From a virus, in the IMG/VR virus record IMGVR_UViG_3300042691_019444, positions 28,971 to 92,970 of that record: a stretch of DNA of 64,000 nucleotides; one strand, written 5' to 3'. Each line of letters opens with the position of its first letter. The stretch's first letter is position 1. The notes beneath the pieces are model-generated. The model was not told the DNA's origin. It did not search any database and worked only from the letters and a program-made list of their open reading frames with translations. Positions 726 through 63,124 of this stretch are shown here, one piece after another. The translations under genes and the position numbers were made by a program.

Positions 726-743
726 CCGCAACACGTGTTGCGG
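726..743. repeat. 18-bp palindrome copy 1 (exact)
   Basis: CCGCAACACGTGTTGCGG 2 nt after a stop codon, followed by CATAAC and GGAGG RBS. Confidence 0.97.
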
Positions 744-765
744 CATAACGCATGTGGAGGTTGTT

Positions 766-1071
766 ATGAGCGACAACGAACAAGCGTTATGCGTGCCATG
801 CGTACATCTAAACGGGTCGGGGTCCGATACGCTTCTCAAGGAATACCGAGAAGTTGTGGAGGCATTCGACGAACTACAGTTGGCCCTTCAGCGACTTACG
901 TTTCATTCGCGAGACTACTACGTATTGGGAGATGATGCGTGGAAGGTTGCGCGTGATGCCGAGACCGCCAGACGAGCAATGGTGTCAAGGTGTCGGGATG
1001 AGTATCGGCAAATCATGGTGGGGATTCGGAGACAAATTCGGGATAAGGAACGCCAGAGGGAGGTAAGATGA
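766..1071 (+). CDS. hypothetical protein
   Basis: GGAGG RBS then ATG 766; coupled to next ORF. Confidence 0.75.
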   Translation: MSDNEQALCVPCVHLNGSGSDTLLKEYREVVEAFDELQLALQRLTFHSRDYYVLGDDAWKVARDAETARRAMVSRCRDEYRQIMVGIRRQIRDKERQREVR

Positions 1072-1373
1072 GAGTCATATTCGAGTTGGCGGTTGGGATG
1101 GTGTTGGTTGCGGCGATAGTGCATGGTGCGATTCTCAAGCTGAGGGTTGCGATGCTTGAGAAGAAGGTAAAGCAACTGACCACCAAAACGAACAATCCCT
1201 CAACCGTATTCGGGTTCAGGATCGGTACACCAGACATCCATGAAATGGCCCTGAAGATGGGATATGAGCCATTCGCATTGACGGGGGACCAACTCATGGA
1301 TGTGGTCGATTTGGTGATGGAGGAGAAGGCCCATACCCATAAGCCCAATCACCCAATCATAGACGCAAATTAG
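1068..1373 (+). CDS. hypothetical membrane-anchored protein
   Basis: N-terminal hydrophobic helix; ATGA overlap; RBS. Confidence 0.7.
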   Translation: MRVIFELAVGMVLVAAIVHGAILKLRVAMLEKKVKQLTTKTNNPSTVFGFRIGTPDIHEMALKMGYEPFALTGDQLMDVVDLVMEEKAHTHKPNHPIIDAN

Positions 1374-1379
1374 GAGGGT

Positions 1380-2279
1380 GTGATGCGGCGCAAAGTAAGT
1401 TCAGAGGACCCATTCTTCAGATACGACTTTGGTGGGGACCCATCATCACAGGAGTACAGGGGTTGTTCGCTTGTGAAGCCCAGTACGATTCATGAACTTG
1501 TGGAGGAGTTCAATACGGCGGTGAATGCGGTGGAGACTTGCTATGCGCGACTGCGAGAGGCCGAAGCTGACCTTGAGAAAGTGTATAGCTATCAGGGGAG
1601 CACGAATCGGATTCGCATTGATGCGTGCGCCGGATACGGGCATGGATGTGACTTTAGTCCGGCAGGAGCCCAACGCACGATTGAGAAGATGCAGCGAGAA
1701 GCATGGTGGTTCATTGTTGAGCGGCTTGAGATGCGTAGGGTGCTCAGCGTGCAGAAGACCAAAGAGTTAGATGAGCAGTTGAACAAAGGTGAATTGCCTC
1801 CCATTACGTATCCGAACGTGGAGGCATTCGTCCAGAAGTACGCATCAGACATCTCGTCGCTTATTGAGGATCAGATAAAGGAGGTGTTCGGGTTCCTACG
1901 CCCGCGTGGGGGTACGCGCGGCGGGAAGTATAAGACCAATCCTAAGTTCGAGTTGAAGGACCGAGTCATCCTGGCGTATTGGGTCGACGACATGACGTGG
2001 AGTAGTCGATACCAAATCGCCCACAACTACCAGAACGAAGCCCGTGCACTGGAGAGGGTATTCCAGACGTTGGACGGGAAGGGTAATGTGCTGAAGGGCT
2101 ATTACTCAGAGTTGGACATCGCAATGAGGGAGGCACCTGATGGGGTAGGTGAGACTGACTATTTCAAATTCCGGGCATGCAAGAACCGCAACCTACATCT
2201 GCAATTCAAGCGGATGGATCTGGTGAAGAAACTGAACATGATTGCTGGGGGTAAGTCCCTAAAGGAAGCATCGCAATGA
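1380..2279 (+). CDS. DUF4942-like protein
   Basis: C-terminal GETDYFKFRACKNRNLHLQFKRMDLVKKLN pattern resembles DUF4942, a domain usually associated with methyltransferases. Confidence 0.65.
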   Translation: MMRRKVSSEDPFFRYDFGGDPSSQEYRGCSLVKPSTIHELVEEFNTAVNAVETCYARLREAEADLEKVYSYQGSTNRIRIDACAGYGHGCDFSPAGAQRTIEKMQREAWWFIVERLEMRRVLSVQKTKELDEQLNKGELPPITYPNVEAFVQKYASDISSLIEDQIKEVFGFLRPRGGTRGGKYKTNPKFELKDRVILAYWVDDMTWSSRYQIAHNYQNEARALERVFQTLDGKGNVLKGYYSELDIAMREAPDGVGETDYFKFRACKNRNLHLQFKRMDLVKKLNMIAGGKSLKEASQ

Positions 2280-2755
2280 CAAAGCTGAGAGAGCAAGTGC
2301 ATGAGTTCATGGTGGCTACGGGGCAGGAGATTCTGGATAACCCCTCAGTACCACCTTCGCCCGCTACGGTTCGGTTGAGGGTACTGCTTATTGTGGAAGA
2401 AGCGTTTGAGTATGCAATTGCATCTACGTCGGATAGGGGAGCGCACAGATACTTGAGCGCCGCAATGAGCAACGTACTGAAGACCATACAGGAGTTGGAT
2501 GCTGACGTATGGGATCACCCGAACCGCGTAGAGATTGCCGACGCGTTGGCCGATCTTGATTATGTTGTGGAGGGTGCACGCCTTACGTATGGAATCGATG
2601 GGGACCGGATTGCGGACATTGTGCATGCAACCAACATGAAGAAGTTGGAGGGCCCAATCGACCCGGTAACCATGAAGCGACTGAAGCCTCCTGGCTGGGT
2701 TCCGCCGACTGTCGATATCGCTAAGGAGCTGAACAAGCAATGCCTCCCAAAGTAA
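2276..2755 (+). CDS. MazG-like / all-alpha NTP pyrophosphohydrolase
   Basis: EEAFE...EIADALADLDYV...VHATNMKK...KPPGW motifs. Confidence 0.85.
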   Translation: MTKLREQVHEFMVATGQEILDNPSVPPSPATVRLRVLLIVEEAFEYAIASTSDRGAHRYLSAAMSNVLKTIQELDADVWDHPNRVEIADALADLDYVVEGARLTYGIDGDRIADIVHATNMKKLEGPIDPVTMKRLKPPGWVPPTVDIAKELNKQCLPK

Positions 2756-3480
2756 CAGGGCCACTGTTCAAGTGGTTTGGAAGTAAGTGGTTGAGCAGTA
2801 AGACGCTCCCACAACCAACACGGGACTCGTTGATTGAACCGTTCGCGGGAGGAGCTGGTTATGCCTTACGGCATTGTCACCTAAACGTCCTATTGGCTGA
2901 GTCGGATGTTCGATTGCATCATTTGTGGGTGTGGCTCATAAGGTATGCGACCGAAGCGGCCATTAGGGAGATTCCGATCGATATCCCGGTCGGTACAGAT
3001 ATCAGACATTTGGAATTGAGTGTCGGCCAGGAACTACTCCTCAAAAACTGGCAGCGAACGAATAACGTGGGGAATTGCTGGACCATAAGTCCGTGGGGCA
3101 ACAAGCCCGGACAATGGACCGCAAATACCCGCGCACGTGTTGCGGAAGAGATAGGGGCAATCAAGCATTGGAATGTAGCAACCGATGACGGGTTCGAAGT
3201 AATGAAGCGTTCTTACTTCGTTGACGCCACATGGTTCATCGACCCTCCTTATCAGTACAACTACCAATATGGTAAGCGACCAATTGATTATGAAGCTCTA
3301 GGCAAATTGGTAGATAGGTGTGCGGAGCGTGGTCAGGTGATTGTGTGTGAGGCAGTATGTCCCAAGACAGGCCGTGTTCCTACGTGGTTGCCATTCAAGC
3401 ACTTCGGCGACCGCATCACCAGTAGGCGCAAACCCACCAATAACCATCACAGCAAAGAGCTAATTTGGGTCAGTGCCTAA
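2740..3480 (+). CDS. DNA adenine methyltransferase (Dam/D12-like)
   Basis: FKWFGSK, EPFAGGAG (motif I) and DPPY (motif IV). Confidence 0.85.
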   Translation: MPPKVTGPLFKWFGSKWLSSKTLPQPTRDSLIEPFAGGAGYALRHCHLNVLLAESDVRLHHLWVWLIRYATEAAIREIPIDIPVGTDIRHLELSVGQELLLKNWQRTNNVGNCWTISPWGNKPGQWTANTRARVAEEIGAIKHWNVATDDGFEVMKRSYFVDATWFIDPPYQYNYQYGKRPIDYEALGKLVDRCAERGQVIVCEAVCPKTGRVPTWLPFKHFGDRITSRRKPTNNHHSKELIWVSA

Positions 3481-3482
3481 CA

Positions 3483-3500
3483 CGGCAACACGTGTTGCGG
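3483..3500. repeat. 18-bp palindrome copy 2 (1 mismatch)
   Basis: CGGCAACACGTGTTGCGG after a stop codon; extra half-site TTGCGGCATAAG follows. Confidence 0.9.
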
Positions 3501-3556
3501 TAGCTTGCGGCATAAGTAGTAGTAAGCACCGCAAACGGTTGTTGTGAGGAGGTATC

Positions 3557-5257: not shown

Positions 5258-5290
5258 CGGTTCAGTTGTACGGGTAACCGTTCCTGAACC

Positions 5291-5341: not shown

Positions 5342-5359
5342 CCGCAACACGTGTTGCGG
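5342..5359. repeat. 18-bp palindrome copy 3 (exact)
   Basis: Exact match, followed by CATAAC and AGGAGG. Confidence 0.97.
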
Positions 5360-5603: not shown

Positions 5604-5611
5604 GGTGTGTG

Positions 5612-8953: not shown

Positions 8954-8971
8954 CCGCAACATGTGTTGCGG
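8954..8971. repeat. 18-bp palindrome copy 4 (1 mismatch)
   Basis: CCGCAACATGTGTTGCGG abutting the RBS of the large terminase. Confidence 0.92.
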
Positions 8972-11666: not shown

Positions 11667-11684
11667 CCGCAACACGTGTTGCGG
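11667..11684. repeat. 18-bp palindrome copy 5 (exact)
   Basis: Preceded by GCGGCATAAC; runs into TGGAGG RBS. Confidence 0.97.
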
Positions 11685-12354: not shown

Positions 12355-12372
12355 CCGCAACCCGTGTTGCGG
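12355..12372. repeat. 18-bp palindrome copy 6 (1 mismatch)
   Basis: CCGCAACCCGTGTTGCGG; terminal GG forms part of GGAGG. Confidence 0.9.
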
Positions 12373-14794: not shown

Positions 14795-14812
14795 CCGCAA
14801 CACGTGTTGCGG
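14795..14812. repeat. 18-bp palindrome copy 7 (exact)
   Basis: Followed by CATAAC and AGGAGG. Confidence 0.97.
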
Positions 14813-16315: not shown

Positions 16316-16905
16316 GCCCCCCTAGGTGGTTGACTAAGTTCCCATATAGGGGTGTCGGCATATGTTCGTGGTGCGGTAAGGCCACCCCACCGAAACGACG
16401 ATACTGGTGTTCAAAGGAATGTGTTGAAGAGTGGATGATCCGTAGCAATGCCACGAGCCTACGTAGGGCAACGTTCGAACGGGACAGGGGCGTGTGCGCA
16501 TTGTGCGGGGTCGACACAGAGGCAGTACACAACGAGCTAACCAAACTCTACTACGATGCCCTAGCGAGGCAAGTAGGGGCAGGAACGTATCATGCCAGTC
16601 ATGCCCTAGCTAAGCGCATTCCCGACTCAGACCCCTACAGGGTTCGGATGCGTGAGTTGGGTAGTCCTAAGTGGATGAAGCGCTCTCTGTGGGAGGCCGA
16701 TCATATTCAGACGGTTGTGGAGGGTGGCGGGGGTTGTGGGTTGGAGAACATTCGCACGTTGTGTTGGAAGTGTCATGCTGCGGAGACGGCTAAGCTACAT
16801 GCCCGTCTGAAGGAGTTTCGTAGGCATTGCCCTCCTGATGTGGAGGCGTGGTTGGATGAACTAGGTACCGCAACACGTGTTGCGGCAGATAAGGAGGCCC
16901 CATGA
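16312..16905 (+). CDS. HNH endonuclease
   Basis: RDRGVCALCG...WEADHI...GGG...ENIRTLCWKCH. Confidence 0.88.
   Translation: MSPPRWLTKFPYRGVGICSWCGKATPPKRRYWCSKECVEEWMIRSNATSLRRATFERDRGVCALCGVDTEAVHNELTKLYYDALARQVGAGTYHASHALAKRIPDSDPYRVRMRELGSPKWMKRSLWEADHIQTVVEGGGGCGLENIRTLCWKCHAAETAKLHARLKEFRRHCPPDVEAWLDELGTATRVAADKEAP
16868..16885. repeat. 18-bp palindrome copy 8 (exact, in HNH CDS as TATRVA)
   Basis: Exact match. Confidence 0.97.
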
Positions 16906-17267
16906 AGTGCAGTATGATCGTTCCGAGTGAAGTAGTGGCCGAACACTTACACGCTCGCGCGTGTGCGTGGGTGAAACGTCTATTGGAGAAGTGTGAGGTA
17001 CAGGACGGGAAGGTCGTTATACCAGAGGAGCTAGTTAGGTCACTAAGCAATGCCGGGAAGGATTACCAACAACTAAACCCCATAGACCGATCCATTCTGC
17101 GGTATGAGGCTATGATGCTGATGCTGGCAATCACAAGGCCAGAGTGGCACGGGCGTAAGTTGGTACGGTGTGGGGAGTGCAGTAGGCGCGTCAATGGTGT
17201 ATGTGAAAACCATGGGTCCGAATGTGATGCGGACTGGGGTTGTGTGGAAGGATTGGAGGCACAATGA
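16902..17267 (+). CDS. hypothetical protein
   Basis: AAGGAGG RBS; C-terminal Cys cluster. Confidence 0.65.
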   Translation: MKCSMIVPSEVVAEHLHARACAWVKRLLEKCEVQDGKVVIPEELVRSLSNAGKDYQQLNPIDRSILRYEAMMLMLAITRPEWHGRKLVRCGECSRRVNGVCENHGSECDADWGCVEGLEAQ

Positions 17268-17998
17268 AGAAGGCAAAGTCTGATAAGCAAATCGTCGGGA
17301 CCGTTGAGCATGTTGGCATCGATACGTTGAAGCCCAACAAGTGGAACCCAAATAAGATGACTACCCGCAAGATGGATAGTCTGAAACAAGGACTGATGGA
17401 GGAGGGTTGGCTATCGTCTCAGACGTTGCTGGTGTGGGGTACCGATAAGGACGGAGTTGCCCACAACGTCATTATTGATGGTGAGCATAGGTGGCGGGCA
17501 GCGAAGGCTTGTGGGTTCAAACAGGCTCCTATTGTGGTGCTGAACAACATCACTGAGATGGAGGCAAAACGGCTAACCATCAAGCTCAATCAACGACGTG
17601 GTGAGTTTGACAGTACGATGCTTGGAGACCTGTTGAAAGAGGTTGCACGCGAGACGGATGCAGCGCTGTCGCTGGGCTTTGAGGATGACTATGTGAGCAA
17701 GCTCATTGCATCTACGGATAAGACCGTAAGTGCGGCAGTATCGGCAGCAACTCCTCCCCCTGCACCGCCACCCCCTCCTGCTCCACCGCCACCTCCTCCA
17801 ACTAAGGTGGACGGCATCAAGGGCGTACAACCAAACACCCGCATTCCGGTCGTCTTCTACATGGATTCAGATGAGGATGCGACTTTGGTGCGTGAAGTGT
17901 TTGCGCACGCTCAACGGCAATTCGAGTCTGACAGTAAGTTGCTGTTGAGTGCCGCCAAGTACATCAAGGCCAATCCGACCGCTATTCCAAAGGGGTAA
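17264..17998 (+). CDS. ParB/Srx-family N-terminal domain protein with Pro-rich linker
   Basis: LKPNKWNPNKM and IIDGEHRWRAA (ParB box I/II-like); poly-Pro linker; small C-terminal domain. Confidence 0.85.
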   Translation: MKKAKSDKQIVGTVEHVGIDTLKPNKWNPNKMTTRKMDSLKQGLMEEGWLSSQTLLVWGTDKDGVAHNVIIDGEHRWRAAKACGFKQAPIVVLNNITEMEAKRLTIKLNQRRGEFDSTMLGDLLKEVARETDAALSLGFEDDYVSKLIASTDKTVSAAVSAATPPPAPPPPPAPPPPPPTKVDGIKGVQPNTRIPVVFYMDSDEDATLVREVFAHAQRQFESDSKLLLSAAKYIKANPTAIPKG

Positions 17999-19335
17999 TG
18001 ATGAAACGCGTAATGCCGGACGGCTCCAGTATCGACATGACCTATAAGTCCCCCCGCGTTAGTGGGGAGATTTATGAATGTGGGTTGCCCCTTACGTTTG
18101 ACCAGTACAGCTATTGCGAATTCAGGTGCGCATACTGTTTCGCATTCAGTACTAAGTCGGTGAATATGGGGGGCAGTAAGGAGAAGAGTCTAAGTCGATA
18201 CGACTACCCGCTTACGTGCGTTGATGTGGAACGGGTAAAGTCCCTGTTCCTGAAGCGCACAACCAGTGAGAAGGGTGTTGTGCCGATGATACAGAACCTC
18301 ATGGCAAAGCGGGCCCCCTTCCATTGGGGAGGGCTATGTGATCCGTTCGACGGCCATGAGGAGAGGTATCAGGTAGGGTTGGAGCTGCTCCGGTTCTTGC
18401 GCGCCATGAACTACCCGACGGTGTTGTGTACTAAGGGTGTGTTGATGACCCGAGACCCATGGCGTAGCGTGCTGATGCAGAGTAACTTTCGGTTCCAGCA
18501 AAGCATCATTACTCAGGACCCTGTGAAGGTGGCAGTAGTGGATGCAGGGTGCCCTGATGCGGAAGCTAGGTTTGAGGCTATGCGCGTACTTGCGCGCGAG
18601 ATGGGCCTCATTACGACGTTGCGGTTACGGCCCATCATACCGGGCATCGTTACGCCTAAGGACTGCGTGGAACTTATCAGGCGTGCTCACGCGTGTGGGG
18701 CAGTAGGTGTGAGTACGGAGTTCTTCTGCGTTGAGGCACGGGGGGAACATAATCGAGAGCGGTATGCGCCGATGAATGAGGTGGCGGGCATTGACATCTT
18801 TGACTTCTACCGTAAGAACTCACCAGGCCAGAGCGGATACTTGCGCCTAAACCCTGAGGTGAAGAATCCGTACTTCGACGCCATGGAGTCGACCGCTAAG
18901 TCGTTGGGGATGCGGTTTGCCATCAGTGACTTCCATGGCAAGGAGCGGAATAACTGCACTACATGCTGTGCGGTTTACTGGGATGATGAGACCCAATTGG
19001 GAGGCAATGCTGAAGGGCCCTTTATCAACTACGGTACACTCACGCGCGGCATCCAATTGGCATCCCGTACGGGATTCGTGTCGTTTGGGGATGTGGCTGA
19101 ATCGCTCGATTGGGCCGAGCATATTGTGGATAGTAACTTTCAGGGGTACATGTGCTCGAACCTGGAGCGTAGCCGCAACCGCAATAAGACGTTGAAGGAC
19201 GCCCTACAGGGGGAATGGAATGACCCCAATAACAGCAAGTCCCCTCACCGCTACACGTACGGCCAACTGAAGCCCATACGGGTGAATGATGCCGGGGATG
19301 TGGTGTATCAGTGGGTAGGTAGGAAACCAACCTAG
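17998..19335 (+). CDS. radical SAM enzyme (spore photoproduct lyase-like)
   Basis: DQYSYCEFRCAYCF CxxxCxxC, GGLCDPF, TKG, RLRPIIPG. Confidence 0.85.
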   Translation: MMKRVMPDGSSIDMTYKSPRVSGEIYECGLPLTFDQYSYCEFRCAYCFAFSTKSVNMGGSKEKSLSRYDYPLTCVDVERVKSLFLKRTTSEKGVVPMIQNLMAKRAPFHWGGLCDPFDGHEERYQVGLELLRFLRAMNYPTVLCTKGVLMTRDPWRSVLMQSNFRFQQSIITQDPVKVAVVDAGCPDAEARFEAMRVLAREMGLITTLRLRPIIPGIVTPKDCVELIRRAHACGAVGVSTEFFCVEARGEHNRERYAPMNEVAGIDIFDFYRKNSPGQSGYLRLNPEVKNPYFDAMESTAKSLGMRFAISDFHGKERNNCTTCCAVYWDDETQLGGNAEGPFINYGTLTRGIQLASRTGFVSFGDVAESLDWAEHIVDSNFQGYMCSNLERSRNRNKTLKDALQGEWNDPNNSKSPHRYTYGQLKPIRVNDAGDVVYQWVGRKPT

Positions 19336-19336
19336 A

Positions 19337-19354
19337 CCGCAACACGTGTTGCGG
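19337..19354. repeat. 18-bp palindrome copy 9 (exact)
   Basis: Between the radical SAM stop and the glycosyltransferase RBS. Confidence 0.97.
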
Positions 19355-19365
19355 TGGAGTGGCAG

Positions 19366-20367
19366 ATGAGCATTATCAACCTGTTCTTTCTGGTACCTCC
19401 GTCGCAGCTTGGCGGTTGTACGTCGTTCACCCTGCATCTGTACCATGCGCTTATCAACCTAGGGCACACCCCTAGGTTGTGCCGCATTACGGACACTGAC
19501 AAAATCAAGGCCAGTAAGTTTCCGTATGGACTTGAGATATGGAATGTTCCGCTTGAGTACGCATTGAACTTAGTTGGCAATGAGCCTGCCCTAATCACGT
19601 ACTGCTTCTGGAAGAAGTATGCTGTGCATGCCGAACCGCTGATAAGGGCCGGAGTACCAATGGTGGTGCATGACCCCGCCGAGTTTCATTCGGATGAGTT
19701 GGAGTTGTTCAAACGGTTGCGGTATCGCCCAATAGTTATACGGGACCGCAACGTGAGGGGACTAAAGGCGTTAGGTGTGGAGTCTACGTACATTCCACAC
19801 CCGTACGCCACATCTCCTACTGTGCCGATGCCTAAGGTCTACAGAGCCTTATGCTTGGCAAGGGTGGACTTTAGGAAACGCACTCACTGGATAGTGACCG
19901 CCAACAAGGCGTTGAGCGAATCGAAGCAATGCCACCTATACGGGGAGGTGAATCGTATTTACGAATATCACCAACTACGCAAGGAACATCCTGATTGGAA
20001 GCAGTGGTATCACGGGCAATTCCCCGACAGGTTGGGGGCTGCGGTGGAGTTGTTTGGTGGGGCTGAGTATGCTGTGGACCTAACTCACATTCAGGGAGAC
20101 GGGGGTGGCACGCAGTACACATTCTTTGAGGCGTGGAATGCCGGCATCCCGTTGGTACTGAACAGGGCATGGGAAACCGGGGTAACCGATGAGGTTAGGG
20201 ACGGAGATAGTTGTGTGATGGTAAACAATGCCGATGAGTTGGTTGAGGTATTGAATACCAATCCTAAGAACTTCGCTGGAATAGTTGAGGGGGGCACACG
20301 CATAATGCACGCACACGGCAATGACGTTGCGATGCTGTATGCAGAACAAGCCATTAGGAGGCCATAA
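19366..20367 (+). CDS. GT-B fold glycosyltransferase
   Basis: N-terminal GG...HL...LGH; ARVDFRK; DGGGTQYTFFEAWNAGIPLVL. Confidence 0.8.
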   Translation: MSIINLFFLVPPSQLGGCTSFTLHLYHALINLGHTPRLCRITDTDKIKASKFPYGLEIWNVPLEYALNLVGNEPALITYCFWKKYAVHAEPLIRAGVPMVVHDPAEFHSDELELFKRLRYRPIVIRDRNVRGLKALGVESTYIPHPYATSPTVPMPKVYRALCLARVDFRKRTHWIVTANKALSESKQCHLYGEVNRIYEYHQLRKEHPDWKQWYHGQFPDRLGAAVELFGGAEYAVDLTHIQGDGGGTQYTFFEAWNAGIPLVLNRAWETGVTDEVRDGDSCVMVNNADELVEVLNTNPKNFAGIVEGGTRIMHAHGNDVAMLYAEQAIRRP

Positions 20368-21137
20368 TGCTGATCGATATCGGAATTGGTAAGAAGGTGT
20401 TTGTGGGGGTTGTCAGTCATGCTCGCCCGGACAATGTTGCTAAGATGAGAGAGCTAGTTGGCGACGCAACGTGGTTCGTTGGAATTGGAGAGAGTAAGGC
20501 ATACAAGGCAGCGGGGGCGGTTCATGTGGTGGAGAGTGGTCCCTTGTGCCGTAGTCGTAATGCCATCATCGACAATGCGGGCGCGAAGGCTGCTGATTAT
20601 TGTGTGGAGTTGAGTGACGATCTGACCAAAGTACAGATTGCAGTATCAACACCTAAGAAGCTAGCGGCTCAAGACTCCGACTTTCAAACCGTAACCAGAA
20701 TGGTGATTGAAGGGATGCTGGCGGTTGGGGCTAAGTTGGGCGGGGCTGCCCCTACTTCCAATCCGTTCTATTCAAATGTGGATGCCCCAATTCATAAGTC
20801 CTCATTCATCGTTGGGGACTTCATCGTAATCGATACGTCGTGCGGGCTTAGGTTCTCCGAAGAAATGACCCTCAAGGAAGACTACGACTATACGATGCAG
20901 CACATTTACACGTTCGGGTGTGTTGCCCGTAGGGATGATGTGTTGATGACATTCCTACATCGTAAGAACAAGGGGGGTGCCGTAGAGGTGAGAACGCCTC
21001 AGTTGGAGCAGGATAACATCGCGTATCTGAAGACGCGTTGGCCTGACTGCATTGTTGATAACCCGAGACGCCCCAATGAGATTCTGTTGAAGCTCCCCAA
21101 GTATCTCAATCAGGGGCGGGCATCGGTGTCGAAATGA
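20367..21137 (+). CDS. GT-A fold glycosyltransferase (TET-associated/GREB1-like)
   Basis: VVSHARP, SRNAI, LSDD, KEDYDY, H..NKGG...R, YLKTRWP. Confidence 0.75.
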   Translation: MLIDIGIGKKVFVGVVSHARPDNVAKMRELVGDATWFVGIGESKAYKAAGAVHVVESGPLCRSRNAIIDNAGAKAADYCVELSDDLTKVQIAVSTPKKLAAQDSDFQTVTRMVIEGMLAVGAKLGGAAPTSNPFYSNVDAPIHKSSFIVGDFIVIDTSCGLRFSEEMTLKEDYDYTMQHIYTFGCVARRDDVLMTFLHRKNKGGAVEVRTPQLEQDNIAYLKTRWPDCIVDNPRRPNEILLKLPKYLNQGRASVSK

Positions 21138-21817: not shown

Positions 21818-22740
21818 TTTACCAAACCAATCAGCCGTGGACTGTGCAGGTCGAACTAGTTGAGGGATGCAATAGGTTGTGCGCGTTCTGTGGCATAAAC
21901 GCTATACGGACACGACCAGGTGATTACAAGTACATGACCGTTGAGACGGCAACCAAAGTAGCGATTGAGCTGGGGGCAATCGCTCCTAAGTGCAAGATTC
22001 ATTTCGCAATGCATGGTGAGCCATTACAGCATCCACAATTCCATTCGATGGTCTCATTGTTCCGCACAATCCTACCTGAAGTTGAGATGATGGTAGTCAC
22101 GAATGGGCGTGTGATTATGAACGACCTACAGGGAGGGCTGAATCGGATATTCGAGGCTGGGATCGATATGGTGATGCTCGATACGTACGAGCCTGAGCGG
22201 GGGCGCCTACGCGCGGGTGTGGAGATACTGCGAGGCATTCTGGTCTCAGACTATTATGGTGATGTGGTGAAGGGTAATGCCCCGAACCCGTATATGAATC
22301 ATCACCGTAAGGTGCGTGGATACTTGTGCGTGATGGATGATATTGGGATTCGTAATGGTGAGCACCCTTCACGGAAACTACACAACCATTCCGGTTCAAA
22401 CCCGTTAGGAACTAAGGTCCAGTCTCCACTTCAGAAGACATGCACTAAACCGTTCCGTGAGATGAGTGTGAATTGGAATGGGGATGTGCGGTTGTGTTGC
22501 GAAGACTGGACTGGTGCCTATACGTGCGGCAATTTGAACGAGAGGTCTGCTGCCGATATTTGGTACGGCCCTGAATTCGAATCCGCGCGTACAATGCTTC
22601 AGAACAAGCGGCGTGATTTCGGAGCCTGTAAGGTATGTGATGCTAGTAGTGGGATGAGATGTGGATTGCTGCCGAAATACCCGTCAGTCAGTCCTGAAGT
22701 TGAGAGCATTGTTAGGAACACTGAGAAGGAGGCAAAATGA
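21814..22740 (+). CDS. radical SAM protein with SPASM/twitch domain
   Basis: CNRLCAFC, HGEPL, TNG; CTKPF...GDVRLCCED...GNL...CKVC. Confidence 0.88.
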   Translation: MIYQTNQPWTVQVELVEGCNRLCAFCGINAIRTRPGDYKYMTVETATKVAIELGAIAPKCKIHFAMHGEPLQHPQFHSMVSLFRTILPEVEMMVVTNGRVIMNDLQGGLNRIFEAGIDMVMLDTYEPERGRLRAGVEILRGILVSDYYGDVVKGNAPNPYMNHHRKVRGYLCVMDDIGIRNGEHPSRKLHNHSGSNPLGTKVQSPLQKTCTKPFREMSVNWNGDVRLCCEDWTGAYTCGNLNERSAADIWYGPEFESARTMLQNKRRDFGACKVCDASSGMRCGLLPKYPSVSPEVESIVRNTEKEAK

Positions 22741-23474
22741 AACGAAGACTGCAAAGCACCGCAACACGTGTTGCGGTCAAACCCGGTACGGTGCACCCGG
22801 TTGAGTACGTTCCCTATAAGGACCTAAAGAAGTCCGATTACAACCCTCGCAAGATGCCAAAGGCAAAGCTGGAGCGACTAGCTACGAACATTGCATTGTT
22901 CGGGTTCGTTGAGAACGTAGTTGTACGGAAGGAGACGGGGGAGATTATTGGTGGGCATCAGCGCATTGCTGCGCTTGAGTTGTTGGCGTCGGGTAAGTTT
23001 ACGCCCAAGAATGCTGAAGGTAAGGAGATTGAATTCACACCCATCGTCAAGGTGCCAGTCATATACGTTGAGGGGTTGTCGGACTTTGACGTAAAGAATC
23101 TCAATCTCAGTCTGAACAGCATCAGTGGTGAGTGGGATTCCGATAAGCTGGGTACGCTTATCAATCAGATGGTCAGTGAGGTGGAGACCGCAATGGACAA
23201 CATTGCGAAGGATGCACTTGCATATCTGTCGCCCAGCGGGTTGTCCACCGATGAGCTGAATGCAATCATCAACAAGGAATCTGAGGACGGGTTGGCGCCT
23301 GAACGTACAACCGGTGTCCCCAAGCTAAACCTTGAGTTTACGTCGAAGGAACTTAGGGATGCATTCAAGGCGTTCGTTGGTGAGGAGAAGCAAGACGGGA
23401 TTCCGAGCGGGGACCTACTTGCTAAGCGGTTGGGAATTGAGGTTGTGAAGAAGCGGAAGTCGAAGCGTACCTAA
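22737..23474 (+). CDS. ParB/Srx-family N-terminal domain protein
   Basis: YNPRKM, FGFVENVVV, IIGGHQRIAAL, LNSISGEWD. Confidence 0.85.
   Translation: MKRRLQSTATRVAVKPGTVHPVEYVPYKDLKKSDYNPRKMPKAKLERLATNIALFGFVENVVVRKETGEIIGGHQRIAALELLASGKFTPKNAEGKEIEFTPIVKVPVIYVEGLSDFDVKNLNLSLNSISGEWDSDKLGTLINQMVSEVETAMDNIAKDALAYLSPSGLSTDELNAIINKESEDGLAPERTTGVPKLNLEFTSKELRDAFKAFVGEEKQDGIPSGDLLAKRLGIEVVKKRKSKRT
22759..22776. repeat. 18-bp palindrome copy 10 (exact, in the 5' end of the ParB-like CDS as TATRVA)
   Basis: Exact match. Confidence 0.97.
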
Positions 23475-23666: not shown

Positions 23667-23684
23667 CCGCAACACGTGTTGCGG
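23667..23684. repeat. 18-bp palindrome copy 11 (exact)
   Basis: Followed by CATAACGCACGTGGAGG, nearly identical to copy 1. Confidence 0.97.
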
Positions 23685-26622: not shown

Positions 26623-26640
26623 CCGCAACACGTGTTGCGG
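26623..26640. repeat. 18-bp palindrome copy 12 (exact)
   Basis: Directly followed by TAGGAGG. Confidence 0.97.
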
Positions 26641-29591: not shown

Positions 29592-30743
29592 ATGGCCGAT
29601 CCATCTCCCAAACGTAAACGCCCCCAAGTAGAATCCGAAACAGTGCGAGCGCAACGCCCGGTCGTGTACTCGCGCGCGGCCGCAACACGTGTTGCGGAAG
29701 CCGAGTTATTGAATCGGAGACAAGCCACCGATTACGCGAGCAAAGTCGGAATCGATAAGGTCAAAAAGACTTTGAACGATGCGCGTGAAGACCTAAAGGA
29801 TCGAACGCGTAAGCTGCATCCGGCCTTAGGTGACGACACCTTCACAGCCATGCATCTGAAAGCAACTATGATTCAGATTGATATTGTGGTTGGGAACATG
29901 AAGCCGGATATTGCGTCAGCCGTGAGTGAGTCAAAGCAGATTGCGGCAGATAGGGCGCAAGAGAACAGTCTGAAGACGCTAAGTGCCATTGACTCACGGT
30001 TTGAAGGGTTGGTTAGGGGCATGCCGTTGGAGGTTGCGATGCAGTTCGACCCGGATGCCGTGGGTAAGAATGCATCGATACTTAGACGTCTAATGGAATC
30101 ACCAGAATCCGACTCAGTAGGGAATGCCATTATGGAGCGGTATGGGACCGCCGTAGTGGGTGCATTTGAGGATAAGTTGAGAGTCGGTATGGTGACCGGT
30201 AAGTCGTTTGCGGAAATGCGCGAGGACTTGATAGCGGAGTCTACTTGGCTACAGTCACAACCCATGTATTGGGCTCAACGGATAGTGCGCACTGAAGTGA
30301 TGGGTGCCTATTCGAGAGCTGCATTGGAGAATGCTAAAGATGCCAATAAGATTCTAGGCGATATGGTCAAGATTCTGGTGGCGGGGTTTGATGACCGTAC
30401 CGCATGGGACTCATATCAGGTGCATGGACAAATTAGGAAGTTGAGCGAGCCGTTTGAGTGGATAACCCGAGACGGCCAACGCATAGCCTATATGACTCCC
30501 CCTAACCGCCCCAATGACCGCGAAACCGTAATCTATCACAGGGTTGTGATGCCAATTCCTGATGACCTGAAACCGGTATCTGATGCGGAATATGAGGCGG
30601 TGTTTGTGAAGCAATGTAAGAGCAAGAAGAACAAGTCTCCATCACCCCCCGCACGCCCGCGTATGACAACCGTCCCCCTAACATGGTTTGGGACTGGTAT
30701 TCCGGACGACATGCAATCCGATTTCGAAGCGGCTAGTGAGTGA
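29592..30743 (+). CDS. head morphogenesis / minor capsid protein (MuF-like)
   Basis: WAQRIVRTEVMGAY, DDRT, HGQIR, PPNRPNDR; follows portal. Confidence 0.8.
   Translation: MADPSPKRKRPQVESETVRAQRPVVYSRAAATRVAEAELLNRRQATDYASKVGIDKVKKTLNDAREDLKDRTRKLHPALGDDTFTAMHLKATMIQIDIVVGNMKPDIASAVSESKQIAADRAQENSLKTLSAIDSRFEGLVRGMPLEVAMQFDPDAVGKNASILRRLMESPESDSVGNAIMERYGTAVVGAFEDKLRVGMVTGKSFAEMREDLIAESTWLQSQPMYWAQRIVRTEVMGAYSRAALENAKDANKILGDMVKILVAGFDDRTAWDSYQVHGQIRKLSEPFEWITRDGQRIAYMTPPNRPNDRETVIYHRVVMPIPDDLKPVSDAEYEAVFVKQCKSKKNKSPSPPARPRMTTVPLTWFGTGIPDDMQSDFEAASE
29680..29697. repeat. 18-bp palindrome copy 13 (exact, in MuF-like CDS as AATRVA)
   Basis: Exact match. Confidence 0.97.
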
Positions 30744-31577: not shown

Positions 31578-31595
31578 CCGCAACACGTGTTGCGG
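31578..31595. repeat. 18-bp palindrome copy 14 (exact)
   Basis: Immediately after TAA; runs into AGAGG RBS. Confidence 0.97.
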
Positions 31596-34043: not shown

Positions 34044-34061
34044 CCGCAATACGTGTTGCGG
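34044..34061. repeat. 18-bp palindrome copy 15 (1 mismatch)
   Basis: CCGCAATACGTGTTGCGG. Confidence 0.92.
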
Positions 34062-34206
34062 TGCACTCCCCAACAATCAACGATTGACAAGTTCCTATGA
34101 CGGAATATCGTCGTAGTGTTGATATGCTCCACCACGCGACGACGGCGGCAACGGTCGGTTCGGGAGCACGCATAGCGTCACTCACACCGATTCAAGGAGA
34201 GTCCAA

Positions 34207-35661: not shown

Positions 35662-35679
35662 CCGCAACACGTGTTGCGG
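35662..35679. repeat. 18-bp palindrome copy 16 (exact)
   Basis: After the ACGGCAT/ATGCCGT hairpin (35642-35659). Confidence 0.97.
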
Positions 35680-38225: not shown

Positions 38226-38243
38226 CCGCAACACGTGTTGCGG
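38226..38243. repeat. 18-bp palindrome copy 17 (exact)
   Basis: Immediately after TAA. Confidence 0.97.
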
Positions 38244-40800: not shown

Positions 40801-40818
40801 CCGCAACACGTGTTGCGG
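40801..40818. repeat. 18-bp palindrome copy 18 (exact)
   Basis: Exact match. Confidence 0.97.
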
Positions 40819-44187: not shown

Positions 44188-44205
44188 CCGCAACACGTGT
44201 TGCGG
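44188..44205. repeat. 18-bp palindrome copy 19 (exact)
   Basis: Between the stop codon and TAGGAG. Confidence 0.97.
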
Positions 44206-48434: not shown

Positions 48435-48452
48435 CCGCAACACGTGTTGCGG
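48435..48452. repeat. 18-bp palindrome copy 20 (exact)
   Basis: Exact match. Confidence 0.97.
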
Positions 48453-53928: not shown

Positions 53929-53946
53929 CCGCAACACGTGTTGCGG
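53929..53946. repeat. 18-bp palindrome copy 21 (exact)
   Basis: Immediately after TGA, before AGGAGG. Confidence 0.97.
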
Positions 53947-56162: not shown

Positions 56163-56676
56163 TCTCCTCCACCACTGTAGTCTGAAGGGGTTGCTCTGAC
56201 CCCGCCATCCAACTCACCAACATTGTAAGCCCCGCCCACTCATCTTCATCGTTGTTGTGAAGATGGTTGGAGACGGTCATGTTTGTCGAATTGAATCGGA
56301 GTGTGCGGGGACCACTTACTCCTTCGGCAAGTTCTCCTTTGAACGTGTCGGCTGCTGGTCTGACATTGAATTCCAACAGGAAGTCTACATCCTTGAGATA
56401 GTGAGTGATGTAGTCGACGAACGCCTTAGTTTCCTCACCACTGGCAATCACCGCAACACGTGTTGCGGCGGAATGCAGGCCGATTCGTTTCAGATAGTTA
56501 CTGACCTCCATGGCGTTGTGCTTCTGGATCTCTTTTCGGTAATCGTGACTGGTATTGCCTGGGATGTAGGCCAACTGAAACTCACATTCCACACCTTTGG
56601 ATTCGACCATCTTGGCGATGAGGAAGTCAATTGGTTCGGTTGTGTGCTTGGGGTTGATGTAAAGGATGGTCAGCAT
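56125..56676 (-). CDS. hypothetical protein (only clear minus-strand gene)
   Basis: AGGAG RBS upstream on the minus strand; normal composition. Confidence 0.65.
   Translation of the reverse strand: MLTILYINPKHTTEPIDFLIAKMVESKGVECEFQLAYIPGNTSHDYRKEIQKHNAMEVSNYLKRIGLHSAATRVAVIASGEETKAFVDYITHYLKDVDFLLEFNVRPAADTFKGELAEGVSGPRTLRFNSTNMTVSNHLHNNDEDEWAGLTMLVSWMAGSEQPLQTTVVEEITSSSEPSPDDV
56451..56468. repeat. 18-bp palindrome copy 22 (exact, in minus-strand CDS as AATRVA)
   Basis: Exact match. Confidence 0.97.
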
Positions 56677-58537: not shown

Positions 58538-58555
58538 CCGCAACACGTGTTGCGG
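58538..58555. repeat. 18-bp palindrome copy 23 (exact)
   Basis: Exact match. Confidence 0.97.
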
Positions 58556-58694: not shown

Positions 58695-59243
58695 ATGACA
58701 GGTAATACCGCAACACGTATTGCGGTGCAGTTGGACTTACCGGAGGGGACCACTGAATTGGACTGGGAACTAGTTGGTAAACTGACAACCCCTCAAGTGG
58801 AGTCACCAATTGCGAATAAGATGGCTGATTGGGCACGCGGCCGAACCAAGGGTAGACAGGAATCTACGAGGGAATCAGCCCGTAAGGAAATGGAACGGAT
58901 TATTGGTGGGGATGATTGGGCTAATTGCCGTCCAATCCATTTGGTTGAGCTATATGCGATGTTGCATGAGCGAATCTATGGGGTACCCCCTGAGGAGTTG
59001 GCGTCGAACAGGGTAAGGATTAGTGCAATCCGTACAATCGCCGACATGCTTAGGAGGCACTTCGCCAATGACGTTGAACGTATGGTGGACTTCATTCGGT
59101 GGTGCTGGGTACGGGAAGAAGGACGTCACAATTGGCGACGTAAGAATGGGGTTGAGTTGAAGCGCATGAATTGGCGTTGGCAATTCAGTCCATCAATGCT
59201 GACTGATTACAGGATGGCAATTGCAGACGAACGAGGGGACTAA
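58695..59243 (+). CDS. putative replication initiator / helicase-associated protein
   Basis: Upstream of DnaB-like helicase; start uncertain (ORF open from 58497). Confidence 0.45.
   Translation: MTGNTATRIAVQLDLPEGTTELDWELVGKLTTPQVESPIANKMADWARGRTKGRQESTRESARKEMERIIGGDDWANCRPIHLVELYAMLHERIYGVPPEELASNRVRISAIRTIADMLRRHFANDVERMVDFIRWCWVREEGRHNWRRKNGVELKRMNWRWQFSPSMLTDYRMAIADERGD
58708..58725. repeat. 18-bp palindrome copy 24 (1 mismatch, TATRIA)
   Basis: CCGCAACACGTATTGCGG, the reverse complement of copy 15. Confidence 0.92.
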
Positions 59244-59623
59244 TGCGAACACGTCTCATTCAGTATCGGGATAAGATACCGTACGAGTTGCATGGGGTGA
59301 TTGTGGGGGCGATGGGTGGGGAACCCTACGAGATATTCGACCCCCCGTGGTGGGCAATCCATCGATGGGTATGGTGGTTGTTTATGACTCGGTACCATGG
59401 CAGATGGCGAGCCATACGTGCAACAATCCGCAGACTACTATTGGATTTGAGACTATTGAGCAAACCTGCATTGGGAGAAGTCCGTCCTAGGTCTGAACCT
59501 AGCTTCAAATACGGCATAATCGATTTCCGCGTGGACCGATGGGTTCGCAGTGTGAGGGTGTGGAGAATTACCGAAGTGAATGTTTCATATTGGGAGCGCG
59601 TACCATGGCACGGAAACCGATAG
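59243..59623 (+). CDS. Trp/Arg-rich hypothetical protein
   Basis: Coupled ORF. Confidence 0.5.
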   Translation: MRTRLIQYRDKIPYELHGVIVGAMGGEPYEIFDPPWWAIHRWVWWLFMTRYHGRWRAIRATIRRLLLDLRLLSKPALGEVRPRSEPSFKYGIIDFRVDRWVRSVRVWRITEVNVSYWERVPWHGNR

Positions 59624-61083: not shown

Positions 61084-62020
61084 CGTACCTAGGTTGTTGA
61101 GAGCGTTGCGAATTGATGCACGTCTGAATGGGAATGAGTGGTGGGCACCATGCCCTAATCCAAAGCACGCCGAACACATCCCTAGTTGGTCGATTAGGGA
61201 TGATGCCGATAGGGAGAATCACGGAAACCATTATTGCTTTGGATGTGAGTGGGGCGGGGATGCGATTGAGTTGGCGAGCGTGGTTACGGGGATGTCCCGC
61301 AGGGCTACGCGTGAGTGGTTGGTAGAGCACGGGCTAATTCGTAGTAAGCGGGGTGAATTGCCAACAATTAGGGTTGTTGTGCGTAGTCCGGTGAAGACTG
61401 CTGTGAGCTTACCGTTTGGTGTGAATTTGAAGCCTCTTAGTGAGTGGTCCGAAAGCGCGAGAGCATATGCGGTTCGGAGAGGTATCACTGACGGTCAGGT
61501 AAGAGACTTCCGGTTGGGCTATGCAATACGGGGGCGACTAGAGGGCCGGATTGTGTTTCCGGCATACGATAAGAACGGTGCAATTACGGGTTACACGTCC
61601 AGAACGTTTAGAGACCACGAAACTAGGTATCTCAATCCCAACACCAGTGAGGGGTTTCCGGAGCACAAGGCAATCTTTGGGGAGCATTTATGGGATGGTG
61701 ATTCGGTTGTGGTTACGTCGGAGGGGGCCATCAACGTACTCAGTGCTCACGCCGTAATGCCATCCATCAATGTGGCTGGCCTGTATGGGTCACATCTGAA
61801 GGAAACGCAAGTGCTGAAACTAGCGAGGTTTCGGAAAATCGTAGTGTTGGAAGACCCCGACCCAACCGGGCGTGATTATGCGGTTGAGTTGAAGGAAGCA
61901 TTCTTTGAGTCGGACACCAGAGTGGTAGTTGCCAAGATGCCGGATGGGTACGACCCGAATGCCCTGTACTGTAAAGACCCTGAAGTGCTGAGATGCCTAA
62001 TAAGGGAGGCTGTGAAATGA
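61067..62020 (+). CDS. DNA primase (CHC2 zinc finger + TOPRIM)
   Basis: CPNPKH...YCFGC, GRIVFP...GYTSR, EG, DPDPTG, DPN. Confidence 0.88.
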   Translation: MGGEVDVPRLLRALRIDARLNGNEWWAPCPNPKHAEHIPSWSIRDDADRENHGNHYCFGCEWGGDAIELASVVTGMSRRATREWLVEHGLIRSKRGELPTIRVVVRSPVKTAVSLPFGVNLKPLSEWSESARAYAVRRGITDGQVRDFRLGYAIRGRLEGRIVFPAYDKNGAITGYTSRTFRDHETRYLNPNTSEGFPEHKAIFGEHLWDGDSVVVTSEGAINVLSAHAVMPSINVAGLYGSHLKETQVLKLARFRKIVVLEDPDPTGRDYAVELKEAFFESDTRVVVAKMPDGYDPNALYCKDPEVLRCLIREAVK

Positions 62021-62544
62021 AAGCTAGTAAGGTTTCGGATGACGACATCATGTTGGCAATCGTAAAGGCGCGTGGAGTGCTTTCGAATGCTGCTCCCATA
62101 TTGGGCATCAGTCGAATAACGCTTTGGAGATTGATTGGTAGCAGGGGGTTAGGGGACCGCGTTGATGAGGTGCGGGTGTCTATAGCGAATCATGGGCTTG
62201 AGGGTGTGCCTAAGAATAAGACCGTTCCAAGCCCATGGCCGCTGATTAGTCAGTACGCGTATGCGGGGCAGACCGATATGGTGTTAGGGATGTTGAGGGT
62301 GGCAATCGAGAAGGCCAGGGGGGACCTTAGGAAAGCTGGACGCCTATTGGGTATTAGTCGGTCCAGCGCATACAATTATGTGGAGCGCTACCAGCTCCGG
62401 GGGTTCGTTGCCGCAACACGTGTTGCGGCACGGGTTGAACGCGTACGGCGTAAGGCCAGGCCGAAGGGTGTGGGCCAACCCGAATGGAAGGGTCGGTGGA
62501 AGACTAAGGGCAATCACGGTTTAGTCGAACAAAATCGACCCTAG
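62017..62544 (+). CDS. tandem Fis-type HTH DNA-binding protein
   Basis: KARGVLSNAAPILGISRITLWR and KARGDLRKAGRLLGISRSSAYN. Confidence 0.75.
   Translation: MKASKVSDDDIMLAIVKARGVLSNAAPILGISRITLWRLIGSRGLGDRVDEVRVSIANHGLEGVPKNKTVPSPWPLISQYAYAGQTDMVLGMLRVAIEKARGDLRKAGRLLGISRSSAYNYVERYQLRGFVAATRVAARVERVRRKARPKGVGQPEWKGRWKTKGNHGLVEQNRP
62411..62428. repeat. 18-bp palindrome copy 25 (exact, in Fis-HTH CDS as AATRVA)
   Basis: Extends to a 22-bp palindrome TGCC...GGCA. Confidence 0.97.
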
Positions 62545-62679
62545 GTAGAATCGGAGCGGGGTCCAGCACCGGTTACCCTACCGGTCGGTCAAACGTTCGA
62601 TCTAGGGCTACGCAAGATTTAGCACATAACCTCATGTGAAATTTCCACGATGTGCAATGGTTGCGTGGTTTCTGGGGTG

Positions 62680-62695
62680 TGCAAGGGATGTGCCG
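62680..62695 (-). promoter_or_regulatory. sigma54-like promoter (-24/-12)
   Basis: Minus strand CGGCAC-ATCCC-TTGCA with correct GG-N10-GC spacing. Confidence 0.4.
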
Positions 62696-62854
62696 TTGCA
62701 CCATTGCAAATTCGAAATTTGAGCATTGCAAGGTTGCAATATCACTCTGCGGTGAGCCAATTCTTCCACTTGGGTGGGCTTAGGTTACGCAGGGGTAAAT
62801 TTCAAAGTTGAAATTGGGGGTGTGGCAAGTGATTGGATTTGCTCAGCCAAACCT

Positions 62855-62870
62855 TGGCACACGGGGTGCA
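62855..62870 (+). promoter_or_regulatory. sigma54-like promoter (-24/-12)
   Basis: TGGCAC-ACGGG-GTGCA with correct spacing. Confidence 0.5.
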
Positions 62871-63031
62871 ATATAGCTTTTGTGCAAGGGCAGTAACGGT
62901 AACCAATTGCAAAAGGAGACGGGCAGATAGGTGTAGGTAGTGCGGTGGTAACGCGGGTTGACCTAGTGACCGCGTGAGGCGCACTGAAAAACCGGAGGGT
63001 GCATTGCGTGCACCCGTACGGCACTAGGCTG

Positions 63032-63044
63032 GATCTTTGACAAC
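63032..63044 (+). promoter_or_regulatory. boxA-like antitermination element
   Basis: GATCTTTGACAAC resembles rrn/nut boxA, in a noncoding leader. Confidence 0.5.
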
Positions 63045-63106
63045 ATAACGCAGTAAGCCAACGGGCGCACCATACGGTACCAAATGCAGGGAGGTAGGGT
63101 GCGCTA

Positions 63107-63124
63107 CCGCAACACGTGTTGCGG
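63107..63124. repeat. 18-bp palindrome copy 26 (exact)
   Basis: Exact match. Confidence 0.97.

Follow-up and report, generated by a model that had tools for sequence, protein, structure and literature searches.

Introduction

Dispersed perfect palindromes have reportedly been noted in a few phage groups, namely the Cluster O mycobacteriophages and phiC31, and are said to have been left mostly unexplained. In the temperate Streptomyces phage phiC31, about 18 copies of a 17-bp conserved inverted repeat (CIR) reportedly lie in many intergenic regions, where they act as operators bound by the phage repressor. Cluster O mycobacteriophages (Corndog and its relatives) carry more than 30 dyad repeats of 17 bp per genome, 34 of them in Corndog, and their function has not been explained (PMC4351075). 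The stoperators of Cluster A mycobacteriophages are read by one phage protein that blocks transcription (PMC6550527, PMC9283540), and the OB operators of plasmid RK2 are dispersed palindromic sites read by KorB, a dimeric helix-turn-helix (HTH) protein of the ParB family (PMC11790492). Here we describe a palindrome, CCGCAACACGTGTTGCGG, that recurs along the genome of an uncultured phage, G0, represented by the 92,970-bp IMG/VR virus record IMGVR_UViG_3300042691_019444; the window, the whole stretch of 64,000 nucleotides that was analysed, comprises bases 28971-92970 of that record. We suggest that a two-headed protein probably recognises this palindrome as duplex DNA.

The closest known case is that of the Cluster O repeats. 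As in Corndog, there are 34 copies in G0, with invariant arms, and they are scattered genome-wide, many in intergenic regions or at gene 5' ends and some within genes, without a strict orientation relative to transcription (PMC4351075). The Cluster O repeats differ in that a variable spacer of 3 bp parts their two 7-bp arms (TGTTCGGNNNCCGAACA), and they are denser at one genome end (PMC4351075), whereas the G0 palindrome is contiguous and of even length, has a conserved centre, is evenly spaced and varies by lineage across an uncultured family. The phages themselves are unrelated, G0 having no match at the DNA level among 50,697 phage records and a best capsid match to a cultured phage of 30%, to a Streptomyces phage. 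The phiC31 repeats share with those of G0 their high conservation and their presence in many intergenic regions of one phage genome, although phiC31 is reportedly temperate and has about 18 copies against 34.

Cluster A stoperators are likewise short, multi-copy sites of lineage-specific sequence in short intergenic regions, but they are asymmetric, 13-14 bp long, oriented with transcription and bound by the monomeric immunity repressor of temperate phages (PMC6550527, PMC9283540). The G0 site, in contrast, is a perfect palindrome, the asymmetric form of its relative G008 occurs in both orientations (25:6), and no tyrosine integrase was found; the many copies in short intergenic regions are a feature that G0 does share (34 copies, about 26 of them intergenic). 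KorB OB operators (PMC11790492), Noc binding sites (NBS) and the parS sites of ParB are palindromes of 13-16 bp dispersed over a replicon and used in silencing or DNA organisation. The geometry of the G0 site fits this pattern, and one phage protein, g6, has a predicted DNA-binding fold of the ParB type, for which no covariation with the site was seen; it differs from those proteins in lacking the ParB_N CTPase domain that makes them clamps. A likeness to parS, to which a sequence-only reading of the window had drawn attention, proves incidental, the central CACGTG common to G0 and parS not being kept in the relatives, one of which (G001) has no ParB_N protein. Stoperators and KorB operators serve as working models of the way in which arrays of this kind act, but G0 lacks defining features of each. 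Repetitive extragenic palindromes (REP) with their RAYT genes are also short, multi-copy, genome-specific and placed at gene ends, but G0 has no RAYT gene, no tetranucleotide tag and no host copies, and its own copies are perfect and positionally conserved.

Results

Copies, placement and spacing of the palindrome

Coordinates are window positions unless marked "genome", which refers to the whole 92,970-bp record. All 26 copies listed for the window by the sequence-only reading are present, 21 exact and 5 with one mismatch (Table 1), including the mirror-image variants at 34044 and 58708; the window yielded no further copy at up to 2 mismatches. None arose in 100 dinucleotide-preserving shuffles of the window. 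Over the whole genome there are 34 copies, of which 29 are exact. An information profile of all 34 shows a conserved unit of 20 bp rather than 18, A-CCGCAACACGTGTTGCGG-T, outside which the flanks of these copies are not conserved, apart from a tendency towards purine-rich, Shine-Dalgarno-type sequence downstream. Among the one-mismatch variants, changes compatible with G-U pairing are not favoured.

The impression that copies mostly stand right after a stop codon and run into the next ribosome-binding site (RBS) is borne out. About 26 of the 34 are intergenic, typically 0-20 nt past a stop and 8-24 nt ahead of the next start, with a Shine-Dalgarno sequence directly after the right arm at most copies and a start codon that is often only 8-12 nt from the palindrome. 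The copies within open reading frames (ORFs; window 16868, 22759, 29680 and 62411, and genome 1339) sit at protein ends, nearly always reading A-T-R-V-A; a copy of the different palindrome of G001, within its sigma-like gene, reads G-T-R-V-P in the same register.

At a density of roughly one copy per 2.7 kb, the even spacing of the palindrome is statistically real. The 34 circular gaps have a coefficient of variation (CV) of 0.50, compared with 0.96 when copies are placed uniformly and 0.95 when 34 gene starts are drawn at random, and none of 20,000 simulations of either kind gave a value as low (P<1e-4). The evenness survives when intergenic positions are taken into account, with P=1.5e-4 against the 58 junctions that have a gap of at least 15 nt, and it recurs in the relatives G001 and G002 (CV 0.51 with P=8e-4 in one of them, CV 0.53 with P=0.003 in the other).

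Related phages and their own palindromes

Four complete genomes were compared: G0 itself (G000), G001 and G002 (G1 and G2 for short) and G008, the letter G denoting genomes of relatives and L their loci or fragments. The palindrome trait belongs to the phage family, and its sequence is specific to the lineage. A syntenic fragment with 68% DNA identity, L006, has three exact copies of the G0 palindrome, two at the junctions used in G0 and one at a different junction. Among capsid-anchored relatives, the complete, 95-kb G001 carries 24 exact copies of TGGAACTCGAGTTCCA and the 87-kb G002 has 20 copies of TGGAAACCCGGGTTTCCA, while G008 (85 kb), which has 57 proteins in common with G0 at roughly 50% identity, contains 31 copies of CCGCAACACGTATTGCGG. 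Eighty polymerase-anchored metagenome loci give further repeat families, including CCGCAAACCGGTTTGCGG, with 12 and 19 copies in the 22-kb loci L098 and L103, as well as CGTTAACCCGGGTTAACG, CGAAACTCGAGTTTCG, GGATGATCGATCATCC, TTTCGGATCGATCCGAAA, TGAGGTCGACCTCA and others; in place of CACGTG, the centres found in relatives are CTCGAG, CCCGGG, ACCGGT or of the TCGATC type. The trait is patchy, there being no copies in 43.7 kb of G003, whose capsid is 62% identical, and no repeat family in several polymerase loci of 11-22 kb.

Of the 17 junctions open to comparison, eleven have a copy in G0 as well as in G008, even though the non-coding DNA around them can no longer be aligned and the proteins have diverged by about 50%, which indicates long-term purifying selection on the whole site; the exact copies of L006 at 68% DNA identity support this. 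Other pairs of phages share palindromes as well: G2 and L141 have an identical 20-bp palindrome at a DNA-polymerase identity of only 43%, and L098 and L103 have theirs in common at 62%. The IMG/VR fragments L009/L010, with no detectable protein similarity to G0 in the fragments compared, carry CCGCAACACCTGTTGCGG, whose arms are those of the G0 palindrome (CCGCAAC...GTTGCGG) around a non-palindromic centre (CACCTG), mostly in one orientation and ahead of GGAG-ATG.

Other repeats were seen alongside these families. Several of the L009/L010 copies are followed by tcaaGGAGctagatATG. In G009 (L083-L086, 70 kb), a distant polymerase relative without g6 and without the palindrome, GGAGTCCTTCAAGGAA is dispersed in 11-13 copies; its core, TCCTT-C-AAGGA, is a dyad of odd length. 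Two palindrome copies in L081 (G008 77090-77140 and 79339-79390) are followed by GGTTCGAnTCC, the consensus of the tRNA T-arm; ARAGORN called no tRNA in G008.

Symmetry of the site and avoidance of hexamers

Word counts that did not require palindromy recovered at least nine independent repeat families in the relatives, every one of them self-complementary through a central tetramer (ACGT, TCGA or CCGG). Were the centre a free loop, it would be symmetric by chance in 1/16 of cases per family. Since these positions would be unpaired in the loop of a hairpin and are symmetric all the same, they speak for a two-fold recognition of DNA in its double-stranded form, and the earlier preference for a symmetric duplex site over an RNA hairpin is strengthened, the more so as the asymmetric variant of G008 stands in both orientations before genes of the + strand.

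All 31 copies in G008 are made asymmetric by a single transition, at position 12 or, on the other strand, at position 7, and they occur in a 25:6 ratio of orientations, always ahead of + strand genes. The transition removes CACGTG from every copy, and the double change that would restore symmetry is never seen among the 31; the hexamer occurs 3 times in the G008 genome against 31.8 expected. As we read these sequences, each copy would have lost a restriction-type hexamer through the single change that the element tolerates. That all copies lack a hexamer which the genome avoids suggests that the site is under a second, DNA-level constraint. The sense RNA of the G0 form folds into an 8-bp hairpin of -11.9 kcal/mol, and the sense hairpin of G008 is weaker in the commoner orientation (-8.5 kcal/mol) than in the rarer one (-9.9 kcal/mol), which indicates that RNA stability is not what is preserved.

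Other hexamers are missing too. The whole G0 genome has no AAGCTT, CTGCAG, GAGCTC, AGGCCT, CCGCGG, CCCGGG or CTCGAG and a single TGGCCA, and G008 is depleted in CGGCCG, CTCGAG, GGGCCC, CACGTG and other 6-bp palindromes, an avoidance that is far weaker in G001 and G002.

A promoter-like motif and separate terminators

A strand-specific motif, (A/G)CGGCATAA(C/G), referred to here as GCGGCATAAC or the CATAAC motif, occurs in about 13-16 copies, 15-56 nt ahead of start codons and in two cases immediately past a canonical terminator. G008 has it too, and in the L098/L103 lineage it takes the form GCGGCATTAC. It is likely a promoter element for g5 (genome 3362-4012), a conserved sigma-like protein with a weak Sigma70_r2 match whose best solved relative is FliA. 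Of the 13 good motifs, ten lie within 90 bp of a palindrome; five are fused with the palindrome at its right arm and another two precede it by 3-4 nt, which is how an operator that overlaps the core of a promoter is arranged.

The palindrome itself fits other signals poorly. As an activator site or promoter for the adjacent gene it was rejected, the start codon being too close, the flanks not conserved and the element palindromic, and the earlier view that it is not the promoter of one temporal class stands on the same grounds. Nor is it an intrinsic terminator: no copy is followed by a T run, and the only three canonical terminators, hairpins with a T run, are separate elements that all lie in the replication region; one of them stands 46 nt downstream of the copy at genome 8630, which shows that the palindrome is not the terminator. 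The idea that half-sites act as free promoter elements was dropped, since it would apply only to the G0 lineage, where GCGG is common to the arm and GCGGCATAAC, and not to G1 or G2. A sigma70-like promoter (34085-34112; TTGACA, 16 nt, TATCGT) was also seen about 95 nt ahead of the major capsid gene and about 23 nt past a palindrome, its TTGAC box being kept in L006 and L015.

Gene content and candidate readers

A simple gene call, made with our own heuristic and no trained gene finder (high-GC relatives by third-position GC content, GC3, only), gives about 136 genes, all on the + strand and covering 93% of a genome whose record ends overlap by 69 bp. Structural genes (terminase, portal, capsid, tail) are present, and the replication genes encode a family-B-like DNA polymerase, helicases including a DnaB-like one, a DnaG-like primase, a UvsX-like recombinase and SbcC- and SbcD-like proteins. 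Capsid and terminase are only 24-30% identical to those of cultured phages. The four complete genomes yielded no tyrosine integrase, serine integrases not having been searched for; an Rfam scan of 99 kb at gathering thresholds, the whole G0 genome included, reached no family, and a tRNA search found none.

Two ParB-like proteins had been put forward as readers of the site, and they do not hold up in that role. Both belong to a cluster that relatives lack, and the complete relative G001, with 24 copies of its own palindrome, has no ParB_N protein, which makes them poor candidates for the reader of a family-wide trait. The cluster itself (17264-23474) has a ParB_N-type protein at either end and, between them, an unknown 445-aa protein, glycosyltransferases of GT-B-like and TET-associated types, an FkbM methyltransferase and a radical-SAM/SPASM enzyme; G001, G002 and G008 lack it, except that G002 and G008 each have a homologue of its second ParB_N-like protein. 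It looks like a module for DNA or glycan modification.

The third protein of that earlier proposal, with tandem Fis-type HTH (HTH_8) modules, remains a live candidate, judged by its gene, which keeps its position in all four complete genomes. The modules directly follow the primase in each, fused in G0 (g134) and G008 and split into two adjacent small genes in G001, G002 and L141. A pair of heads that are related without being identical would suit a palindrome as well as the site of G008, which is asymmetric in every copy. A palindrome copy lies inside the HTH_8 gene in G0 and about 70 nt before its start in G002, and L118, in which primase and helicase genes adjoin without an intervening HTH gene, has no multi-copy palindrome.

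A further candidate is g6 (genome 4080-5342), whose gene stands between those of the sigma-like protein and the polymerase; each of the four complete genomes has it. Its family has 1,416 representatives, 93 members of which gave no Pfam match; g6 itself has no ParB_N match, and its C-terminal half had no tblastn match in the search for cultured relatives. An AlphaFold model (mean predicted local distance difference test, pLDDT, 81) begins with a SAP-like region that bears a zinc ribbon, continues through an acidic stretch of about 50 residues and a linker rich in lysine and proline to a helical ParB-type HTH domain, and ends in a small beta-rich domain. The helical domain, which is central, matches the DNA-binding domains of ParB, Noc and Spo0J with Z 8.0-9.3 and a root-mean-square deviation of 2.3-2.6 A over 91-97 residues, the next unrelated fold scoring Z 4.9. 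We rank the HTH_8 pair ahead of g6, neither of these candidates being proven.

Table 1. Palindrome copies, copies of the promoter-like motif and genes proposed to encode the reader (window positions unless marked genome).
Feature	Position	Strand	Remark
Palindrome, exact	726..743	.	right side fused to CATAAC motif
Palindrome, 1 mismatch (position 2)	3483..3500	.	
Palindrome, exact	5342..5359	.	fused to CATAAC
Palindrome, 1 mismatch (centre)	8954..8971	.	12 nt ahead of terminase large subunit start
Palindrome, exact	11667..11684	.	4 nt downstream of GCGGCATAAC motif
Palindrome, 1 mismatch (centre)	12355..12372	.	3 nt downstream of GCGGCATAAC motif
Palindrome, exact	14795..14812	.	fused to CATAAC
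Palindrome, exact	16868..16885	.	within last 12 codons of HNH gene, frame A-T-R-V-A
Palindrome, exact	19337..19354	.	intergenic
Palindrome, exact	22759..22776	.	first codons of ParB_N-like gene
Palindrome, exact	23667..23684	.	fused to CATAAC
Palindrome, exact	26623..26640	.	intergenic
Palindrome, exact	29680..29697	.	97 nt past portal gene
Palindrome, exact	31578..31595	.	adjoins upstream stop codon
Palindrome, 1 mismatch (position 7 C>T)	34044..34061	.	upstream of sigma70-like promoter ahead of major capsid gene
Palindrome, exact	35662..35679	.	60 nt past major capsid gene; position common to L006 and G008
Palindrome, exact	38226..38243	.	position common to L006 and G008
Palindrome, exact	40801..40818	.	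intergenic
Palindrome, exact	44188..44205	.	position common to G008
Palindrome, exact	48435..48452	.	position common to G008
Palindrome, exact	53929..53946	.	adjoins upstream stop codon
Palindrome, exact	56451..56468	.	in doubtful ORF
Palindrome, exact	58538..58555	.	upstream part of gene adjoining DnaB-like helicase
Palindrome, 1 mismatch (position 12 G>A, mirror of 34044)	58708..58725	.	
Palindrome, exact	62411..62428	.	inside tandem Fis-type HTH gene, past second HTH
Palindrome, exact	63107..63124	.	intergenic
(A/G)CGGCATAA(C/G) motif	740..749	+	candidate promoter element, often touching palindrome
(A/G)CGGCATAA(C/G) motif, other window copies	3507, 5356, 11653, 12342, 13843, 14809, 23681, 25776	+	
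(A/G)CGGCATAA(C/G) motif, genome copies	genome 4045, 5409, 8719, 26777	+	
ParB_N protein	17264..17998	+	head of glycosyltransferase/methyltransferase/radical-SAM cluster; proposed reader, unsupported
Second ParB_N-like protein	22737..23474	+	homologues in G008 and G2, none in G1
g134, 175-aa protein with two Fis-type HTH (HTH_8) modules	62017..62544	+	directly after primase; candidate reader

Discussion

We propose that a phage-encoded, sequence-specific protein with two equivalent or near-equivalent heads reads the palindrome on double-stranded DNA, and that one copy per ~2.7 kb would be kept wherever the packed, one-strand genome tolerates it, either in the gaps between a stop codon and the next RBS or in frame at protein ends. 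The bound protein would constitute a genome-wide operator or roadblock array on transcription: a palindrome abutting GCGGCATAAC or just downstream of it would occlude that promoter, and palindromes elsewhere would block or punctuate read-through. The reader would most likely be the Fis-type HTH module pair encoded after the primase or, as second choice, the ParB-type HTH protein g6 beside the sigma-like gene. Recognition of duplex DNA by a two-headed protein we hold to be probable; that such a reader also serves an array which occludes the phage's own promoters and punctuates read-through is a serious but tentative possibility, to which we are led by geometry and by the known analogues. A role in lysogenic immunity like that of the stoperators is unlikely, because no tyrosine integrase is present. 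It is also conceivable, if quite improbable, that the two-headed Fis-type HTH protein tiles the genome evenly as a tightly bound protein and acts physically, not on one gene at a time, marking self DNA or stalling host machines. Translocating or loop-extruding complexes, such as type I restriction enzymes, RecBCD-like nucleases and SMC-type defence complexes, would then be halted at fixed intervals, and the site would evolve under joint pressure from its reader and from host restriction, as the CACGTG-free form of G008 suggests.

Several observations weigh against a phage-encoded duplex reader. The bias in orientation of the G008 site, with a hand-calculated two-sided binomial P of about 9e-4, shows that there is some constraint specific to the strand; the bias may even come from selection weakening the hairpin in the message. 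The candidate proteins do not follow the site closely: L132 has a repeat family and no HTH_8 module was detected after its primase, while g6 is also encoded in at least eight loci of 11-22 kb that have no repeat family, and of the proteins common to phages with the same palindrome it is the one least conserved (26-38%). Covariation with palindrome type was seen neither for the putative recognition helix of g6 nor for that of HTH_8, the pairs available being few, and phages that share palindromes (G2/L141, L098/L103 and G0/G008) differ in the putative recognition helices of both proteins.

A palindrome acting as an RNA hairpin within long polycistronic transcripts, whether as a processing site, a stabiliser, a translation insulator or a protein site of the lambda boxB or MS2-operator type, would sit well with genes that all lie on one strand, with copies placed mostly 0-20 nt past a stop and directly followed by a Shine-Dalgarno sequence, and with a sense RNA that can form the 8-bp hairpin of -11.9 kcal/mol. 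The unrelated L009/L010 repeat, with the same arms, a CACCTG centre and mostly one orientation before GGAG-ATG, speaks for it as well, as does the 25:6 bias of G008. We nonetheless regard this explanation, the strongest of the rivals, as unlikely. At least nine families keep a self-complementary central tetramer for which a loop has no need, G008 has both orientations before + strand genes with the weaker hairpin (-8.5 against -9.9 kcal/mol) in the commoner one, the one-mismatch variants do not favour G-U-compatible changes, and structure alone does not need identity at all 18-20 positions; moreover, the copy at genome 8630 precedes a canonical terminator and so is not itself a 3' end signal. 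Much the same objections face a hairpin or cruciform extruded from duplex or formed in single-stranded DNA during replication or recombination, for instance for periodic priming or helicase loading on the lagging-strand template, or as an entry point for an SbcCD-like nuclease in recombination-dependent replication: structure-specific enzymes would not require an identical sequence in all copies, a hairpin does not require central symmetry, most copies have no origin-like features with them, and a palindrome of 18 bp is short for cruciform extrusion. This makes an extruded structure distinctly unlikely, despite the even spacing of 2.7-4.3 kb in three genomes, which is of the same order of length as Okazaki fragments, the presence of SbcC-/SbcD-like proteins, a UvsX-like recombinase, a DnaB-like helicase and a DnaG-like primase, the two copies 170 bp apart before the gene adjoining the helicase and primase genes, and the ability of either strand of a perfect palindrome to form the same hairpin.

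The reader might instead be a host protein, with phages of one host converging on the site of that host. Identical palindromes at 43% (G2/L141) and 62% (L098/L103) polymerase identity are what such convergence would give, no examined phage protein covaries with the site, and the arms of the G0 repeat recur in the unrelated L009/L010, which counts against a phage-encoded reader as well. Yet a search of 185,579 species genomes returned 41 exact matches, always isolated and in no genome part of a multi-copy family, on which ground a host repeat family was rejected; most lie in a conserved MerR-like gene, where they code P-Q-H-V-L-R-F-W-E, and most of the remainder are lone terminator-like hairpins or other coding sequence. 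In four candidate genomes the palindrome was no more frequent than a reversed-pattern control. Host regulators, besides, rarely need 18-20 perfectly matched bases, and we judge a host reader to be rather improbable. Very improbable, in our view, is a selfish, REP-like mobile palindrome without function for the phage. Its patchiness among relatives (G003, with a 62% identical capsid, has none in 43.7 kb), the identity of all copies within a genome and their occurrence in both orientations and at gene ends would be in keeping with such an element, but no Y1/RAYT transposase is encoded in the four complete genomes (PF01797 is absent from G000, G001, G002 and G008, and was detected in control genomes), copies at orthologous junctions are intact at about 50% protein divergence, spacing is more even than chance, and there is neither a GTAG or CGTC tag nor any copy in a host.

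Dispersed palindromes of this kind have already been seen in other phages, and G0 adds a further case. What is new is descriptive: the even spacing, the lineage-specific sequences, the symmetry of the centre and a variant that avoids a restriction hexamer. The trait is recurrent in a large, uncultured group of phages of roughly 85-95 kb, and its natural site variants, together with two concrete candidate readers, make the proposal of a duplex-DNA reader testable in vitro without phage culture. If found, the reader and its role would provide an explanation for a class of repeats that occurs across unrelated phages, and the reader would offer orthogonal protein-site pairs as possible tools.

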